Positions 25,985 to 32,000 of a stretch of DNA of 32,000 nucleotides are shown piece by piece; the stretch's first letter is position 1, and each line of letters opens with the position of its first letter. The notes under the pieces are model-generated. The model was given only the letters and a program-made list of their open reading frames with translations, was not told where the DNA came from and did not search any database. A program made the position numbers and the translations under genes. This DNA is from Okeania sp. (GTDB lineage: Bacteria > Cyanobacteriota > Cyanobacteriia > Cyanobacteriales > Microcoleaceae), in assembly GCF_035285525.1 (NCBI RefSeq), contig NZ_JAYKGW010000005.1, forward strand, positions 29,647 through 61,646, given 5' to 3'.

Positions 25985-26542
25985 ATGTCAAATCTCACAG
26001 TTAAAGATTTAGAAATACTGCAAGATAATCTTAATAAATTAGATTTAGATTATCAATTAGAATTAGATGAAGGAAAGATATTAGTTATGAGTCCGTCGGA
26101 TATTATTTCTAGTGAAGTTGGCGTTCAATTAATTAGATTATTAGGTAATTGGGTTTACCCGCGTCGTCTCGGACGTGTGTTTGATTCTAGTGGTGCTTTT
26201 ATTCTTCCAGATACTAATTTAAAGGTTCCTGATGTTTCTTTTGTTCGTGCCCAACGTTTGAAAAAAAGTGTTCGTTATTTTGGGGAGTTGGTGCCAGATT
26301 TAGTAGTAGAAATTAAGTCTCAAAGTGATAGAATTAAACCTTTAAAACAGAAAATAAAGAAGTATTTAGAGTTAGGAGTAGAAGTAGGAATATTGATCGA
26401 TCCTGACAAAGAAATAGTTATTATTTATCGTCCTAATAGTGAAGAAATAGAGTTAAAAAATGGAGATATTTTGACTATTCCTGAATTATTTGGTGAGTGG
26501 GAATTATCTATTGTTGAACTTTGGCCTCCTGTGTTTGAATAA
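25985..26542 (+). CDS. Uma2-family (DUF820) restriction-endonuclease-fold protein
   Basis: 185-aa ORF with the family pattern: ...ELDEGKILVMSP...; VPDVSFV; and the PD-(D/E)xK-like block LVPDLVVEIKSQSD followed by KKYLELGVEVGILIDP. Confidence 0.8.
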   Translation: MSNLTVKDLEILQDNLNKLDLDYQLELDEGKILVMSPSDIISSEVGVQLIRLLGNWVYPRRLGRVFDSSGAFILPDTNLKVPDVSFVRAQRLKKSVRYFGELVPDLVVEIKSQSDRIKPLKQKIKKYLELGVEVGILIDPDKEIVIIYRPNSEEIELKNGDILTIPELFGEWELSIVELWPPVFE

Positions 26543-27453: not shown

Positions 27454-28056
27454 ATGTCTAAATCTAATTTCTCTTACATTCAACTTTTTAGACACAAATT
27501 TAACCGACTGGTTTCGATTAGTTTGTTTTTACTAACTTTAACTATTATATTGTCTTGGAGTTGGATATTACCTAGTTACACTCAGACACCTACACCTAAT
27601 GTTCAAAGTCGGGAAAGTTTAATTCAAGAAATTAAAGATTATGCTGAACGTCATGTTGAAAATGATAAGGCAATGGATAGTAGGTTAATGATTGATTTAT
27701 ATGAGAAAAATTCTGTGGGTTTAAGTACTCCAGAAATTACTAAAATTTATGAGGAAGAATACACAAAACTCAAAGAGGCAAAAGATAGTAATCTCTGGGA
27801 AAGAATAAAGGATGATTTATTTTATGGGTTGTCTTGGTTTGCTGCAATAGTATTTTTGATACTGTTTATTTTTAAAGAAGCTATACAAGGTTGGGCAACT
27901 AATTTAACTAATACTTTTGGGGACTGGTTATACAATCAAATTTCTGGTCTGGAATTATTTTGGAATTACTCTCTAAGACGCTATAAAAAAGGTCTCATTA
28001 ATAAACACGAAAAACTCAAAATTCCTTTTCGTCCAAATCGTCCTTTAAGTCTATAA
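27454..28056 (+). CDS. Fragment 1: N-terminal bitopic membrane domain (2 TM helices flanking an ~80-aa loop)
   Basis: TM1 is LVSISLFLLTLTIILSWSWIL and TM2 is LSWFAAIVFLILFIF. The basic juxtamembrane tail is ...LRRYKKGLINKHEKLKIPFRPNRPLSL. Confidence 0.6.
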   Translation: MSKSNFSYIQLFRHKFNRLVSISLFLLTLTIILSWSWILPSYTQTPTPNVQSRESLIQEIKDYAERHVENDKAMDSRLMIDLYEKNSVGLSTPEITKIYEEEYTKLKEAKDSNLWERIKDDLFYGLSWFAAIVFLILFIFKEAIQGWATNLTNTFGDWLYNQISGLELFWNYSLRRYKKGLINKHEKLKIPFRPNRPLSL

Positions 28057-28065
28057 GAAGTTTAT

Positions 28066-29277
28066 GTGGATTTGCAATTTTTGGAAAAAGCTAATAATGA
28101 ACCAATTAATTTTTCTGAGATTAAAAAATATCATCGTTTGACTATTAAGGGGCAACCTGGTTCTGGAAAAACACTTTTATTAAAATATCTGGTTCTTTCT
28201 TGGGCGAGTCAAAAATTAAACAGTTCCTCCAATGAATATGTGCCGATTTTATTAGAATTATATCGCCTCAATGAAATAGAAATTTCTGCCCTCAATATCG
28301 AAGCATTAAAACAGAAATTAGTAGAAGCTTTAGATAGGGATGATTTTCCAAAAGCTAATTCTTTTGTCGAACAAAATCTCAAAAAAGGAAAATTATTTCT
28401 ATTATTTGATGGCTTAGATGAAGTGAAAAGTTTGATTCGCACTGAAGTTGTAAAAGCTATTAATGACTTATTAGATAAATACGATAAATGTCGAACAATT
28501 ATTACTTGTCGGGCAGCAGTTTATCGGAATGATTTTGCCAAATCAGTCGATAAAACATTAGATATTAAAGAATTTAGCGACAGACAAATGCGACTCTTTT
28601 TAGAAGCATGGAAATCGGAAATGCCACCCGAAAAATCTATCGATCAACTCATACAAACTTTGAGAGATAGACCTCTAATTATGGAGTTAGCAAGAAATCC
28701 TTTAATGTTGACTATTGTTGCTCATCTTTATACTCAACCTGCCTTTATTTTGCCTCAGTCTCGGTCAGATTTTTATCAAGAATCTACTCATATTTTATTG
28801 AATCAATGGCAGAATAATTTTAATCAATATAAAGAGAGCGCTCATAAACGGAGAGTTTTACAACATTTGGCTTTATTTGCTCAAGATAATGCTAGTAAAC
28901 AACAAAAAAATGACTTAAGTTTAGATTATCAAATTGTCTTAAAACAAATTAGAAAAATTTTACCTAATTTGAATCTTAATCCTGAAACAGATACTCAATC
29001 AATATTAAAAGAAATTGTCGAACGTAGTGGATTATTATTGGAAATTGAAAGAGGAGATAAATATCAATTTGCTCATTTAACTTTGCAAGAATATTTTGCA
29101 GCAACAGCTTTGAGAGATAGAGAAAATGAGTTAATAGAAAGGTTTAAAAATGACCCCGAACGTTGGCGAGAAACTGTTAAACTTTGGTGTGGTTTTGCCG
29201 GGAATAGTACGAATTTAATAGAAGTTATTTATCACGAAGATTCTCTCATAGCTTTTGAATGTTTAGCCGATGCTTAA
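28066..29277 (+). CDS. Fragment 2: NACHT-type P-loop NTPase domain
   Basis: Walker A GQPGSGKT (28150-28173), Walker B LFLLFDGLDE, then TCRAAVY, ARNPLMLTIVAHLY and FAHLTLQEYFAA. These are hallmark NACHT / winged-helix blocks. Confidence 0.8.
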   Translation: MDLQFLEKANNEPINFSEIKKYHRLTIKGQPGSGKTLLLKYLVLSWASQKLNSSSNEYVPILLELYRLNEIEISALNIEALKQKLVEALDRDDFPKANSFVEQNLKKGKLFLLFDGLDEVKSLIRTEVVKAINDLLDKYDKCRTIITCRAAVYRNDFAKSVDKTLDIKEFSDRQMRLFLEAWKSEMPPEKSIDQLIQTLRDRPLIMELARNPLMLTIVAHLYTQPAFILPQSRSDFYQESTHILLNQWQNNFNQYKESAHKRRVLQHLALFAQDNASKQQKNDLSLDYQIVLKQIRKILPNLNLNPETDTQSILKEIVERSGLLLEIERGDKYQFAHLTLQEYFAATALRDRENELIERFKNDPERWRETVKLWCGFAGNSTNLIEVIYHEDSLIAFECLADA

Positions 29278-29292
29278 GAAGTTTCTCCTATT

Positions 29293-29772
29293 TTGGTAGA
29301 GAAAATTATTGAAGAGTTTAAGCAAAAATTGGCAGAAGTAAATTATGATGAAAATTTAGCTAGAGCTTTTGGAGCAGTCGCTTCTGATGTTCGGGAAAGA
29401 GGTAGGGGAAAAGTTGTTTTTGAGTTTCTAGAAAATGCTTTGAAAAATTCTGAATCTTTAGAAGTTCGTAAAGCATCTATTAAGGCTTTATCTAAAACAA
29501 ATTTGCCACAAGCGGCGAATATTTTGTTTAATTATTATATGGATATTGATTTGGAAGATGCTCGTTTAGCACTTATTAATATGGGAGATATTACAGTTTC
29601 TTTATTGAAGGGTTTGGCAGAGAAAGGTTCGGAAACAGCAATGAGAGATTTAGTGAAAATTGGTACTCCCTATTCGAGAGAAGTTTTAAATAATTTACTA
29701 TATCATTCTGATGAGAATATTCAGAGGTTAGCTGCTTTAAATATTGCGGAATTTAGGAGTTTAAATAATTAA
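29293..29772 (+). CDS. Fragment 3: HEAT/armadillo-like helical repeat region
   Basis: Helical-repeat-like segments ...ALKNSESLEVRKASIKALSKTNLPQAANIL..., ...GSETAMRDLVKIGTP... and ...HSDENIQRLAALNIAEF. This is the usual C-terminal partner of cyanobacterial NACHT proteins. Confidence 0.55.
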   Translation: MVEKIIEEFKQKLAEVNYDENLARAFGAVASDVRERGRGKVVFEFLENALKNSESLEVRKASIKALSKTNLPQAANILFNYYMDIDLEDARLALINMGDITVSLLKGLAEKGSETAMRDLVKIGTPYSREVLNNLLYHSDENIQRLAALNIAEFRSLNN

Positions 29773-29792
29773 GTTTTCTAGAAGTAGGAAAT

Positions 29793-30593
29793 ATGGCAAA
29801 AGTTGATAAGGAATTTAATTTAAAAGATTGGGAATGGATAGCAGTTCATTTTCCAAAATCAGAAAGAGAAACTATGGCAAGAGTAGCTTGGTTGGTTTGT
29901 TCTAAATGTACTCCTGAAGAAATTTATCAGTATAATCTTGACCCAAGAATAGTTATTCCTTTGTGTGCGATACTATTGCTTGATAAAAAAGATTTTTTAG
30001 AGTTAAAAAACTTTCCCAAAAGCAAAGAAAAAGAAATTGATAGCTATTTGGCAATTTTAGAAAAATCAGAGAGAAAACAAGAAAATTATAATAGAGTCAA
30101 ACAAGAATTTATTAATCCAGCAATTAATTCTATTAATCCTAGTAAAAAATGGCTATCTCTGTTTCAAACTTTGGATATATATTTACAATTTTCCTTACTT
30201 TATAGCTTTATCAAATATCGTCGTATAACCCGTAATGATTGGCGTAATATTTTTCTAGATATAGAAAATTTAAGTATTAATTTTTATTTTTTAGTTGTTT
30301 TAATAATATCTCTAAGAGTAATAATGATATCAGATAATCAGTTAAATTCCTCTACAATTAAACAGATAATACTCTTATTTTTGCTCTTAAGTGGGCTTCT
30401 TTTATGGATAGTTTTACTATTTATTTTTTTCTGGAAAACAACCCTATTAGTTAAAATAATAAGTTTAGTTGCTTGCTCAATATTGTGGATTTACGGACAA
30501 AATATATATCGCAAACTTACTAATCCTCTGAGGAAAATTTTCCAATCTAATATTTCTCGAAGTCTAGCAAACCTAGATAGATTTAATAACTGA
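29793..30593 (+). CDS. Hypothetical protein with soluble N-terminal half and 3-4 C-terminal TM helices
   Basis: 266-aa ATG ORF 20 nt after fragment 3, with AGGAAAT just upstream. The hydrophobic segments are FYFLVVLIISLRVIMI, IILLFLLLSGLLLWIVLLFIFFW and LLVKIISLVACSILWIY. No family recognised. Confidence 0.55.
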   Translation: MAKVDKEFNLKDWEWIAVHFPKSERETMARVAWLVCSKCTPEEIYQYNLDPRIVIPLCAILLLDKKDFLELKNFPKSKEKEIDSYLAILEKSERKQENYNRVKQEFINPAINSINPSKKWLSLFQTLDIYLQFSLLYSFIKYRRITRNDWRNIFLDIENLSINFYFLVVLIISLRVIMISDNQLNSSTIKQIILLFLLLSGLLLWIVLLFIFFWKTTLLVKIISLVACSILWIYGQNIYRKLTNPLRKIFQSNISRSLANLDRFNN

Positions 30594-30899
30594 AGATTAG
30601 TAAATAAAAAATTATTCTCAATCTGAAAAAGGAATAAATATTAAAGTTCACAATCTGAAATTATCCTGACAAAAATATTGCTTGATTTAACTGACTTTCT
30701 CAAAACATTCGATAAGCGATCGCTCTTTAAATTTCACCCTTTATTTATTCCTAAATTCTCACTTTCTTTAATATATAGAAATAGCGATCGCGAAGCGGAA
30801 CGGAGTTTTATCCCTCTCTAATATTTCATCTTTTAAGGATTGGTAATTTAGGTAGAAAATTAATAGCTGAAGAGGCGATCTCCCTCAAAACTATCTTTT

Positions 30900-31006
30900 G
30901 TTGAATAAAAAGTCATGTGTATAGGCGAACAAACCCAGTTAAATATTATCATATCAGAAAAATTGTCAGGGCGCAACCCCTAAATCCTTCGATGCGCGGA
31001 TTTTTT
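30900..31006 (+). promoter_or_regulatory. Conserved ~107-nt element, copy 1: mini-ORF (30915-30983, 22 aa) plus hairpin and U-run
   Basis: GTTGAATAAAAAGTCATG.GTATAG.CGAACAAACCCAGTTAAATATTATCATATCAGAAAAATT... The hairpin is AAATCC(30982-30987)/GGATTT(30998-31003), followed by T6. Repeated at 31177 and 31692. Confidence 0.55.
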
Positions 31007-31021
31007 CAGGAGCTTCAGAGA

Positions 31022-31153
31022 ATGAGAATACTGATAATTTTCTGCTCAAGAGTGGTATGGAAAGATTTGAAGAGGAAGAAACACTATTCATGGGTGCTTC
31101 ATAAAATGAAAATATTTCTGGTATTGCTCTTGAGAAAATTCCCGAATATTTGA
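31022..31153 (+). CDS. Small ORF, 43 aa (MRILIIFCSRVVWKDLKRKKHYSWVLHKMKIFLVLLLRKFPNI), cassette 1
   Basis: GGAG box lies 9 nt upstream of the ATG. It is colinear without indels with the 41-aa ORF at 31817. Of the codon differences between the two copies, 7 are synonymous (ctg/ttg, ttc/ttt, aag/aaa, cat/cac, ata/atc, ctc/ctt, ttg/ctg). The ORF-track version starting at GTG 30917 reads through the terminator and is rejected. Confidence 0.4.
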   Translation: MRILIIFCSRVVWKDLKRKKHYSWVLHKMKIFLVLLLRKFPNI

Positions 31154-31176
31154 TTGTCTCCTGGCCATAAAATTAA

Positions 31177-31287
31177 GTTGAATAAAAAGTCATGCGTATA
31201 GACGAACAAACCCAGTTAAATATTATCATATCAGAAAAATTCTGAGAACGCAACCCCTAAATCCTTCGACGCGCGGATTTTTTTTTT
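31177..31287 (+). promoter_or_regulatory. Conserved ~107-nt element, copy 2 (mini-ORF 31192-31245, 17 aa; hairpin plus T10)
   Basis: Near-identical to copy 1. It is followed by GGGAG and a small ORF truncated after 8 codons (31303-31329, MTMLVIFH*), i.e. a decayed cassette. Confidence 0.55.
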
Positions 31288-31691
31288 CGGGAGTTTCAGA
31301 GAATGACAATGTTGGTGATTTTCCATTGAGGAGCTTAGATGGAAAAATTTAATGATGGGAAAATATGGATTTAGCGATCGCGAAGCGGAACGGAGTTCTA
31401 TCGCTCTCGCGGAACATAGTTCTATAACTTCCTAATATTTCATTCTTTTCAGTAGATTCTAATTTTGAAGATTTAGAAAAAAGCTGACTGCCGACTGTCG
31501 AAAACTTATCGAACTTCTTTTGTGAGAAAGCAACTGAAAATTCTTTGACACGGCGAATTTTTTGGGAGCTTCACACTCAGGAAAATATTCGTACTCTTCT
31601 ACTTAGGAGAAATAGATGGAAAGATTTGAGGAGAGAAAAACTACCATTTCTAGGAGCTTAACAAAACGCAAATTTTGGCCTAGGAAAATAG

Positions 31692-31800
31692 GTTGAATAA
31701 AAAGTCATGCGTATAGACGAACAACCCCAGTTAAATATTATGATATCAGAAAAATTGTCAGGATGCAACCCCTAAATTCTTCGGCGCGCCGATTTTTTTT
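31692..31800 (+). promoter_or_regulatory. Conserved ~107-nt element, copy 3 (mini-ORF 31707-31775, 22 aa; GC-rich hairpin plus T8)
   Basis: Same element. The terminator region is changed to AAATTCTTCGGCGCGCCGATTTTTTTT and can still form a hairpin (TCGG/CCGA). Confidence 0.55.
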
Positions 31801-31816
31801 AGGTAGCTCTTAGACA

Positions 31817-31942
31817 ATGAAAATATTGGTGATTTTTCAAAGGAGAGATAGATGGAAAGATTTGATTAGGAAAAACAACCATTTCCCGGAGCTTCACAAA
31901 ATGAAAATCTTTCTGGCATTGCTTCTGGGTAAATTATTTTGA
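31817..31942 (+). CDS. Small ORF, 41 aa (MKILVIFQRRDRWKDLIRKNNHFPELHKMKIFLALLLGKLF), cassette 3
   Basis: Homologous to 31022..31153 in the same frame. An internal second GGAG-N9-ATG lies at 31887-31903. A further copy of its 5' end (31959-32000, identical to 31801-31842) runs off the window. Confidence 0.4.
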   Translation: MKILVIFQRRDRWKDLIRKNNHFPELHKMKIFLALLLGKLF

Positions 31943-32000
31943 TGCTGGGATTTTTTTTAGGTAGCTCTTAGACAATGAAAATATTGGTGATTTTTCAAAG

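Follow-up and report, generated by a model that had tools for sequence, protein, structure and literature searches.

A clade-restricted family of tandem repeats in Okeania, Trichodesmium and their relatives with a conserved promoter-like signature on the minus strand

The 32,000-nucleotide stretch of Okeania sp. DNA analyzed here (the window, taken at its full length) closes with a head-to-tail array of repeats (Table 1) belonging to a clade-restricted family, which on our best reading is undescribed in the searchable literature and in Rfam, Pfam and NCBIfam. We judge it probable, if by no means assured, that this family is non-coding and that each of its units is a self-promoted small RNA gene on the minus strand; it is the succession on that strand of an upstream box, an A-tract, a promoter and a near-invariant block that points to such a gene.

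The tandem modules at 30893-32000 are genuine and occur far above chance: a 33-mer of the repeat element has three matches in the window against 0.00 expected, and the GGAG-N9-ATG box noted in the preliminary description occurs five times against 0.08 expected. The repeated element, put there at ~107 nt, is recovered as ~116-nt copies at 30893, 31170 and 31685 with mutual identities of 89-91%, the GTTGAAT core of these three full copies starting at 30900, 31177 and 31692. A fourth copy without the upstream element corresponds to a partial copy that lacks the 5' block (31498-31576; nhmmer positions 51-123, E=1.7e-6). The surmise of a fifth copy and a larger array also holds, since 31949-32000 is identical (100%) to 31791-31842 and the array hence leaves the window. 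Tandem Repeats Finder returned nothing for the array, to which it is blind because the units are too divergent or interrupted, and plasmid BLAST found no match. The coordinates of the unit 1 core were mapped by hand and then checked against the window sequence. The preliminary description had not separated from unit 2 an unrelated, HIP1-containing dispersed repeat inserted into it, a second copy of which lies upstream of the array at 30770-30834.

Table 1. Features of the repeat array in the window
Feature	Position	Strand	Details
Head-to-tail array	30893..32000	.	at least 3 full and 2 partial repeat units; runs past window end
Unit 1 core, predicted transcribed block (…CGCCUAUACACAUGACUUUUUAUUCAAC)	30900..30941	-	family column table columns 9-49 and alignment
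Unit 1 predicted promoter	30948..30976	-	-35 TTGCGC 30976-30971; spacer 17 bp; TG 30956-30955; -10 TATGAT 30953-30948
Unit 1 T-run	31001..31006	+	equals A-tract at ~-55 to -60 of predicted minus-strand promoter
Unit 1 box 1, GGAGCTTCAGAGAATGA	31009..31025	+	right-hand boundary motif of minimal element; columns 114-130
43-codon ORF, judged fortuitous	31022..31153	+	unit 1
Unit 1 box 2, GGTGCTTCATAAAATGA, internal duplicate	31093..31109	+	"tail" after box 2 reaches 31176
Unit 2 core, predicted transcribed block	31177..31218	-	nhmmer and alignment
Unit 2 predicted promoter	31225..31253	-	-35 TTGCGT 31253-31248; spacer 17 bp; TG 31233-31232; -10 TATGAT 31230-31225
Unit 2 T-run and box	31278..31306	+	T-run 31278-31287; box GGAGTTTCAGAGAATGA 31290-31306
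HIP1-containing dispersed repeat, unrelated	31360..31448	+	inserted into unit 2
Partial unit without core	31498..31576	+	degenerate promoter region; T-run 31558-31563; box 31564-31575
Unit 3 core, predicted transcribed block	31692..31733	-	nhmmer and alignment
Unit 3 predicted promoter	31740..31768	-	-35 TTGCAT 31768-31763; spacer 17 bp; TG 31748-31747; -10 TATCAT 31745-31740
Unit 3 T-run and degenerate box	31793..31820	+	T-run 31793-31800; box GGTAGCTCTTAGACAATGA 31802-31820
41-codon ORF, judged fortuitous	31817..31942	+	includes box 2, GGAGCTTCACAAAATGA, at 31888-31904
Next partial unit, cut by window end	31938..32000	+	T-run 31951-31958; box 31960-31978

The 18-mer that opens each unit was found by a sequence scan at 118 or more genome loci and, among the matches listed, in 120 metagenome contigs; the hosts of the genome loci listed are only Okeania, Trichodesmium and Dapis, all of them non-heterocystous, and related Microcoleaceae MAGs. 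With nhmmer, 406 repeat copies were recovered, arranged head-to-tail in arrays of 1-9 units; none of the 238 fetched loci comes from the window's own genome. Okeania genomes each have a minimum of 15 loci, together holding at least 46-61 copies, and in T. erythraeum IMS101 copies lie at 38,379-39,760 and at 6,209,583-6,210,100 of NC_008312. Sixteen singletons define the limits of the unit, from the core through the box; the minimal unit is ~135 bp long, and unit size in the family ranges from 135 to 330 bp. Arrays in co-directional spacers show no preferred orientation relative to the neighboring genes (21 versus 20), while 26 arrays lie in convergent and 11 in divergent spacers. No neighboring gene recurs around the 118 listed loci, none of the fetched loci has a photolyase neighbor that might link it to the abundant ncr1753291 transcript, and there is no recurrent transposase neighbor, TnpB-like ORFs adjoining only 7 of the 118. 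The window locus is syntenic in L049, L062 and L068, with 8, 9 and 1 units, respectively; the sole contig carrying the gene next to the window array stops inside unit 1. Rfam 15, searched in gathering and E-value modes with the window and four related Okeania and T. erythraeum loci, gave chance matches only, and we found no description of the family in the literature on the repeat sequence or on Trichodesmium and Okeania repeats.

Sigma-70 promoters combine a -35 TTGnnn, a spacer of 17±1 bp, a -10 TAnnnT with an optional TGn and a purine at +1, and in the -10 element conservation is strongest at the position-2 A and the final T. A column profile of 269 dereplicated copies, read on the minus strand, displays a conserved pattern of TTGCAT, a 17-bp spacer, TGnTAnnAT and an A at +1 that fits such a promoter, and in this profile and in raw-sequence counts every sigma-70-type feature is found. 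The frequencies are T.94, T.95, G.88, C.88, A.88 and T.84 in the -35 element, T.96 and G.96 in the extended element, T.95, A 1.00, n, n, A.77 and T 1.00 in the -10 element and A.94 at +1; read on the + strand, the same region has the key A at only ~0.45. A spacer of exactly 17 bp is found in 274 of the 320 copies scored, with flanking segments that differ in length, the TG is present in 274/274 copies by raw-sequence counts, and the -10 hexamers differ only in their middle (TATCAT, TATTAT, TACTAT, TAGTAT and TACAAT). All three full window copies keep TTGCnn-17-TGnTAnnAT, and unit 3 matches the family consensus exactly. A generic promoter scan does not call this promoter because its -35 element TTGCAT agrees with TTGACA at only 3/6 positions. 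Downstream of it lies an almost invariant block, the complement of GTTGAATAAAAAGTCATGCGTAGGGGCGA, within which the search 18-mer is conserved by construction of the search; upstream of it sit the conserved T-run (5-10 T) and the GGAGCTTCAnAnAATGA box. The polarity proposed earlier, of leader, terminator and ORF, is therefore probably inverted, the conserved promoter signature being that of the minus strand. The promoter model leaves one feature unexplained: GGAG-N9-ATG is conserved in the 269-copy profile, and its ATG, at the proper Shine-Dalgarno distance, is the most conserved triplet of the box (0.99-1.00).

We accordingly describe the unit in minus-strand order as a prediction: it would begin with the box TCATTnTnTGAAGCTCC and the A-tract, continue with the sigma-70-type promoter (TTGCAT, 17 bp, TGnTAnnAT) and end in a transcribed region with ~12 variable nt followed by ~29 nearly invariant nt (UCGCCCCUACGCAUGACUUUUUAUUCAAC), the 3' end of the RNA being predicted near …UUUUUAUUCAAC or else heterogeneous. 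In unit 1 such an RNA would start at ~30941 (±2) and run to ~30900. Starts 40-42 nt within the unit are likewise predicted at ~31,218 and ~31,733 for units 2 and 3, and at ~38,419, 38,698, 38,986, 39,259 and 39,550 in NC_008312. The T-run is more likely the upstream A-tract of this promoter than a terminator. Units would have dispersed among many intergenic sites, and unequal recombination would have multiplied them head-to-tail. From these patterns we infer that the promoter fires, that the RNA ends about there and that function resides in the RNA and not in the DNA site; a 29-nt invariant block would also be expected of a DNA-binding site. The RNA might regulate in trans, pair with a protein or be no more than the transcript of a selfish element. 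An ORF that can be read on the minus strand from the invariant CATG, consisting of MTFYST and then 0-59 variable codons, is non-coding.

On the + strand, both long ORFs of the preliminary description, of 43 and 41 codons, are present, each with the internal duplicate box ascribed to it, and the ORF from 31303 in unit 2 does stop after 8 codons, the state encountered most often in the family. The two long ORFs had been said to differ mainly by synonymous or conservative changes; instead, they share 17 identical codons and differ by 7 synonymous and 17 non-synonymous ones, with nucleotide differences of 11/11/15 over the three codon positions. The 43-codon ORF is a fusion of what T. erythraeum IMS101 has as separate mini-ORFs of 8, 4 and 26 codons. 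Over ~400 repeat copies the ORFs are not conserved. Those that begin at the conserved ATG range from 1 to 77 codons (mode 7-8), tails take every length from 75 to 84 nt with indels of lengths not divisible by three, ATG-to-next-TAA distances have no significant skew modulo 3 (58/36/47), and the information content by codon position (0.88/0.97/0.85) has neither periodicity nor a third-position bias. Just 17 out of 136 ORFs have stayed intact (15-36 codons, with 26-27 in 13 cases); these end exactly at the TAA of the next core, and the ATG frame has fewer internal stops than the other two. Preservation of the frame in homologous arrays, named at the outset as the test of the small ORFs, was thus examined directly, and the frame is not kept. 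The peptides, for which no family had been recognized, have no match in Pfam or NCBIfam. Judged by these comparisons, the GGAG-N9-ATG boxes and the 41-43-codon ORFs are by-products of the repeat sequence and not genes.

The same data bear on the resemblance to type I toxin-antitoxin loci that had been suggested for the array. Here the + strand would yield an mRNA for a small hydrophobic peptide (MKIFLVLLL…), ancestrally of ~26 codons, with its stop in the TAA of the next GTTGAATAA; the minus-strand RNA would be an antisense overlapping the 3' end of that mRNA, and most copies would be decayed. The conserved box and its ATG, the hydrophobic N-terminus, the intact ORFs that stop at the next core and the relative paucity of stops in the ATG frame fit this, as does the predicted antisense promoter just past the stop codon, the RNA from which would extend over the stop that closes the preceding tail ORF; Bacillus type I systems with 3' overlap have a similar antisense promoter geometry. 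The units also share with ldr/rdl and ibs/sib a short hydrophobic ORF with a Shine-Dalgarno sequence, a predicted antisense promoter nearby, a tandem layout and some decayed-looking copies. Yet, in contrast to these loci, neither frame nor length of the ORF is conserved, the family profile holds no conserved + strand promoter, singletons have the box without a tail ORF, and the family exceeds them in copy number by one to two orders of magnitude; no toxin-antitoxin family is known to reach the dozens to hundreds of copies that a genome would hold here. Add to this the rarity of intact ORFs, the range of tail and ORF lengths, the excess of non-synonymous changes in the window pair and the absence of any toxin family match in Pfam and NCBIfam, and the toxin reading is largely refuted by the non-conservation of the frame; we consider it very improbable. 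Less remote, but still improbable, is a + strand small RNA array akin to NsiR1, in which a promoter in the "leader" (TAGACG-16-TATTAT in the window) would drive a ~55-nt RNA ending at a hairpin and U-run. The tandem layout, the highly conserved T-run and the + strand promoter-like match in two window copies speak for it, and one Okeania subfamily has a decent hairpin ahead of the T-run (GCAAGG-N7-CCTTGC, ~-9 kcal/mol). Against it, the + strand -10 element breaks down at the key A, a GGCGA-like sequence occupies the -35 position, TAGACG is not conserved (the family consensus is TAGGGG), and the most conserved block (GTTGAAT…GGCGA) would be left untranscribed and unexplained. Moreover, of the hairpin and U-run described earlier, the T-run stands as a conserved feature and the hairpin, taken over the whole family, barely exceeds shuffled sequence: the stretch preceding the T-run averages -3.2 kcal/mol versus -2.5 for shuffles and -3.6 for its reverse complement, and hairpins of -5 kcal/mol or below precede the T-run in 24% of copies versus 14% of shuffles. 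In the window these are weak A/T stems with fold z-scores of -0.7 to +0.6, including the one at 30982-31000 just before the unit 1 T-run, and a terminator scan called none on the + strand. The minus strand is likewise poor in structure: RNAalifold gave an empty consensus for both strands, a candidate 5' hairpin of the predicted RNA has 67% of cells paired versus 53-70% in slid controls, with one covarying pair (62 G-C, 30 A-U), no convincing terminator is seen 3' of the block, and pairing of the RNA with the + strand box region is no better than in shuffles.

NsiR1 itself was described as a tandem small RNA array upstream of hetF in heterocystous cyanobacteria, with a heterocyst-specific promoter bearing a TCCGGA (DIF) motif near -35 (Ionescu et al. 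2010, via PMC6596454). As far as that account of it extends, NsiR1 and the present arrays have in common direct tandem intergenic repeats, each apparently provided with a promoter of its own that drives a very short non-coding RNA; the latter differ in having no sequence or Rfam match to NsiR1, no DIF motif, a position not upstream of hetF, non-heterocystous Microcoleaceae hosts, at least 15 loci per genome rather than one, a predicted transcribed strand opposite the T-runs and no clear terminator. TCCGGA is found four times in the window, at chance frequency and always outside 30800-32000, and so is missing from the array. The Rfam search returned no family at gathering score or meaningful E-value, although Rfam 15 may hold no NsiR1 model, and next to the array at L062, one of the syntenic loci, lies a convergent, intein-containing dnaB and not hetF. 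What survives of the suggested likeness is a larger, self-contained tandem array to which a small RNA is a closer analogy than a protein gene; identity with NsiR1 does not. The same convergent dnaB, the lack of any orientation relation to the downstream gene, the predominance of convergent and co-directional spacers, the rows of as many as nine copies and the missing conserved structure leave next to no chance for a cis-regulatory leader (an attenuator or riboswitch with an upstream mini-ORF controlling a + strand gene), which the order of conserved element, T-run, SD-like box and ATG might suggest and which the orientation statistics already contradict. A more serious contender, though we hold it unlikely, is a repeat without a cellular RNA function that would be purely selfish or structural, resembling a MITE or a satellite or acting as a DNA site for protein binding, and whose promoter-like motif would be incidental or serve only its own spread. 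High copy number at many dispersed intergenic sites, depletion in divergent, promoter-containing spacers (11 versus 26 convergent), unit numbers of 1, 8, 9 and at least 4 at orthologous sites, contigs that break at the repeat, insertions and duplications clustered at the box, and the lack of RNA structure supported by RNAalifold or the slid controls all agree with it. However, arrays are kept at syntenic sites across genera, and conservation is concentrated at promoter-critical positions with a fixed 17-bp spacer, which argues for selection on transcription in most copies. A MITE was rejected, as terminal inverted repeats are absent from the three singletons and the window unit scanned and no transposase is associated. 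Integron attC sites are imperfect palindromes that fold as a long hairpin and are bounded by an inverse core (RYYYAAC) and a core (GTTRRRY); GTTGAAT agrees with the latter but has neither an inverse core as its partner nor a long hairpin, no inverted repeats span the element and single-strand folds have z ~0, so that attC/CALIN was likewise rejected.

The preferred reading, a minus-strand small RNA gene in each unit, finds partial parallels elsewhere. Correia elements of Neisseria, REP/BIME and ERIC are promoter-carrying interspersed bacterial repeats and are, like this family, intergenic, ~100-150 bp long, present in tens to hundreds of copies, equipped with promoter-like elements and tolerated mostly outside divergent promoter regions; the present family differs in its confinement to one cyanobacterial clade, its arrays of up to nine head-to-tail units, and the 29-nt invariant block 3' of the promoter, and in that neither terminal inverted repeats nor, in an unsystematic look, target duplications were seen. 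In type II-C CRISPR of Neisseria and Campylobacter each repeat has its own promoter with a TGn-extended -10, and the predicted extended -10 promoter per repeat would similarly allow units to be transcribed independently. Yet these sequences are not CRISPR-like: unique spacers are missing, unit length is far greater and no cas genes are seen nearby. Within the same lineage, T. erythraeum IMS101 has a >6-kb array of seven 736-973-bp repeats that yields its most abundant ncRNA (Pfreundt et al. 2014, PMC4143802). Both are tandem and non-coding, and the IMS101 repeats each have their own transcription start; that array, however, is a single locus at 103-110 kb with a partial gene duplicate per repeat (PMC4143802), as against units of 135-330 bp in the present family.

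Trichodesmium and its relatives matter ecologically as nitrogen fixers and toxin producers, and genomes of this group are unusually rich in transcribed, largely uncatalogued non-coding DNA. The family is a defined, clade-wide component of that DNA, for which strand, start and product can be predicted precisely; at ~0.1-0.3% of the genome by a lower-bound count, it does not alone account for the 40% non-coding fraction. Its SD-ATG boxes produce many spurious small ORFs, and its repeats break short-read assemblies. A bolder possibility, which we regard as doubtful, is that each unit is an active mini-gene for a trans-acting RNA of ~40-50 nt with the invariant 29-nt sequence, and that the family represents a new, massively multi-copy class of RNA genes in bacteria. 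Such an RNA would be invisible to the sole published Trichodesmium dRNA-seq transcriptome because of its 300-nt cutoff, which excluded shorter RNAs. With 50 to >100 promoters per genome, it would rank with the most abundant small RNAs of Trichodesmium and Okeania, and might work in trans as a regulator on a global scale, as an RNA that partners a protein, or as the guide or primer of an unrecognized mobile system.

The array at the end of the window is a real feature that was spotted correctly in the preliminary description, and it is best regarded as belonging to a clade-specific, previously undescribed repeat family with non-coding, self-promoted units. The repeated leader element claimed there is recovered by the repeat finder as three copies of about 116 nt with 89-91% identity; the 33-mer GTTGAATAAAAAGTCATGCGTATAGACGAACAA has three matches in the window against 0.00 expected, and the GGAG box repeat, GGAGCTTCAnAnAATGAnAAT, has five against 0.08 expected. 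The module said to lack the upstream element is a 5'-truncated copy in the profile search, and the last stretch of the window is identical to an earlier one; hence, the array extends beyond the window, as proposed. The claimed hairpins, on the other hand, are weak (fold z-scores -0.7 to +0.6), and the terminator scan called no + strand terminator in the window. A HIP1-containing repeat unrelated to the array (…AATAGCGATCGCGAAGCGGAACGGAGTTyTATC…CTAATATTTCAT) occurs twice, and strings related to it (GCGATAGAACTCCGTTCCGC) flank the arrays at loci L004 and L006.

Features at and upstream of the array, in window coordinates
Feature	Position	Remark
Uma2-family putative restriction endonuclease	25985-26542	PF05685, 1.4e-33
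Co-oriented gene set	27454-30593	directly upstream of array; conserved together with it in L049, L062 and L068
200-aa membrane protein		upstream set
NACHT/STAND NTPase		upstream set; PF05729, 7.5e-16
159-aa HEAT-like protein		upstream set
266-aa multi-pass membrane protein		upstream set; no Pfam match
HIP1-containing repeat, second copy	30770-30834	just upstream of array
Unit 1, full copy	30893 (start)
Promoter-spacer segment ATATCAGAAAAATTGTCA	30951-30968	83% complementary over 18 nt to TGAAAATATTTCTGGTAT
Insertion/duplication between box copies	31009-31109	box GAGCTTCACAGGATGA
TGAAAATATTTCTGGTAT	31107-31124	starts at box-2 ATG
Unit 2, full copy	31170 (start)
HIP1-containing repeat	31360-31448	interrupts unit 2
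5'-truncated copy	31498-31576
Unit 3, full copy	31685 (start)
Last stretch of window	31949-32000	identical to 31791-31842

The minimal element, defined from 16 singletons, is about 135 nt long and runs from just before the GTTGAAT core, via the T-run, to the box (GGAG-N9-ATG), GGAGCTTCAnAnAATGA. Longer units carry an additional tail 3' of the box, for which every length from 75 to 84 nt occurs, and many also have material between two copies of the box. Such insertions or duplications are seen in the Okeania arrays L103 and L009 as well as in the window; therefore, the box acts as a recombination hot spot inside arrays. The GTTGAAT core fits the GTTRRRY of attC sites, but it comes without a partner core or long hairpin, and this assignment was rejected.

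The 43-, 41- and 8-codon ORFs of the preliminary description are present but are not genes. The two long ones had been said to differ by synonymous or conservative changes; they differ by 17 non-synonymous and 7 synonymous codons, with nucleotide differences of 11/11/15 by codon position. Across 394 boxes, the ORF from the conserved ATG spans 1-77 codons with a mode of 7-8, and the neighbouring frame gives a similar spread; in Trichodesmium erythraeum IMS101, the homologue of the 43-codon ORF is broken into ORFs of 8, 4 and 26 codons. Counted from the ATG, the TAA within the following GTTGAATAA lies at distances that are distributed 58/36/47 modulo 3, just 17 of the 136 distinct tails keep an open frame, and the information content by codon position is 0.88/0.97/0.85. 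Pfam and NCBIfam gave no family match for the peptides. Length varies just as much for the minus-strand ORF that opens at the invariant CATG (MTFYST…). With neither frame nor length conserved and no codon-position bias, the peptide or toxin interpretation is wrong: the array fails the defining test of a type I toxin-antitoxin system, a conserved toxin ORF.

Read on the minus strand, 269 dereplicated copies show a -35 hexamer (T.94 T.95 G.88 C.88 A.88 T.84), a 17-column spacer, an extended element (T.96 G.96 plus one further base), a -10 hexamer (T.95 A1.00 n n A.77 T1.00) and a conserved A (.94) seven bases past it; on the + strand the critical A of these columns reaches only ~0.45. In information content, these columns match a textbook extended -10 sigma-70 promoter, predicted here from sequence. 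Among 412 distinct copies in the raw sequences, 320 were scored for the spacer, which is exactly 17 bp in 274, all of these (274/274) with the extended TG; the segments beside this fixed spacer vary, one measuring 51 or 52 nt and the other 49-61 nt, and the -10 hexamers differ at internal positions only (TATCAT, TATTAT, TACTAT, TAGTAT, TACAAT…). The three full window copies have TTGCGC, TTGCGT or TTGCAT, followed after a 17-bp spacer by TGATATGAT or TGATATCAT. A generic promoter scan calls none of these promoters because TTGCAT shares only three positions with TTGACA. In about 27% of copies the central run of the spacer is rich in A, and in the others it is rich in T, as though a short near-palindrome had been inverted from one subfamily to another. 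We consider it likely that the predicted promoter is functional; it does not explain the conservation of the box ATG, which is near-perfect and at SD distance.

The RNA predicted from this promoter would have its 5' end about 40-42 nt into the unit and would cover the block with the strongest conservation in the family, the complement of GTTGAATAAAAAGTCATGCGTAGGGGCGA; this would place the T-run, as an A-tract, at roughly -53 to -60 and the box at roughly -60 to -77. Hence, the polarity of the array is probably the reverse of that first proposed. The conserved block ends abruptly at …UUCAAC, then a short A-rich stretch, with unique DNA thereafter at array ends and singletons; no convincing terminator follows it. 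RNAalifold yielded no consensus structure on either strand, and a candidate 5' hairpin in the predicted RNA has 67% pairing, which lies inside the range spanned by slid controls; one of its pairs covaries from G-C to A-U. On the + strand, one Okeania subfamily has a good hairpin ahead of the T-run (GCAAGG-N7-CCTTGC, about -9 kcal/mol). The mean over the whole family is -3.2 kcal/mol, compared with -2.5 in shuffled sequences and -3.6 when the reverse complement is folded; the hairpin may thus act as a + strand terminator, but such a role does not define the family. It seems doubtful that the minus-strand RNA has a trans-acting cellular role. The transcriptome of IMS101 excluded RNAs <300 nt (Pfreundt et al. 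2014, PMC4143802).

When one genome per species was scanned, the 18-mer GTTGAATAAAAAGTCATG was found at no fewer than 118 loci, and among the matches listed all hosts are Okeania, Trichodesmium (including IMS101), Dapis or unclassified Microcoleaceae MAGs. Profile search of the listed genome loci gave at least 406 copies in at least 130 arrays of 1-9 units, with start-to-start distances peaking at around 185 and 285 nt. Among Okeania genomes, the four with the best sampling (SIO2B3, SIO2C9, KiyG1) each have at least 46-61 copies at no fewer than 15 loci. IMS101 has an array at 38,379-39,760 with the layout of unit 1 and a shorter variant at about 6,209,583; its large array of 736-973-bp repeats at 103-110 kb (PMC4143802) is a different element. 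A metagenome scan added 120 contigs, many ending at the repeat; many short-read contigs among L120-L199 end inside or at it, and the Logan contig of SRR19514071 (L001) stops 336 nt past the neighbouring gene. Thus, the family systematically causes breaks in assemblies of these cyanobacteria. The literature search found no paper mentioning the sequence or such a repeat family.

In the window, genes for the NACHT NTPase, the HEAT-like protein and a membrane protein precede the array, an order syntenic with L049, L062 and L068, which hold 8, 9 and 1 units; the number of units thus changes, but the arrays themselves are retained at orthologous positions. Beyond the L062 array lies a convergent dnaB helicase gene with an intein (220-1389; PF03796 3.9e-81, PF14890 2.6e-28). 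The upstream gene set could be a STAND-type conflict system; the Uma2 family is very common in cyanobacteria. Orientation and neighbours of the arrays speak against a cis-regulatory leader: arrays have no preferred orientation relative to flanking genes (21 versus 20 in co-directional spacers, with 26 in convergent and 11 in divergent spacers), and no recurrent gene family was found beside them. The lack of both argues for autonomous units tolerated away from gene promoters. Of the proposed likeness to NsiR1, what stands is the tandem arrangement, with a short-RNA promoter apparently present in each unit. Membership failed several tests: an Rfam search gave no match for the array, the TCCGGA motif was not found in it, and, unlike NsiR1, it has no hetF, many loci per genome and non-heterocystous hosts, as Okeania, Trichodesmium and Dapis are. 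The family resembles the interspersed bacterial repeats Correia, REP and ERIC in size, copy number and promoter content but forms head-to-tail arrays, and a scan of three singletons and the window unit showed no terminal inverted repeats. We are highly confident that these are dispersed repeats of a non-coding family. The non-coding genome of the host organisms is a recognised puzzle and, while making up only a small fraction of it, these units are a new repeat family there.
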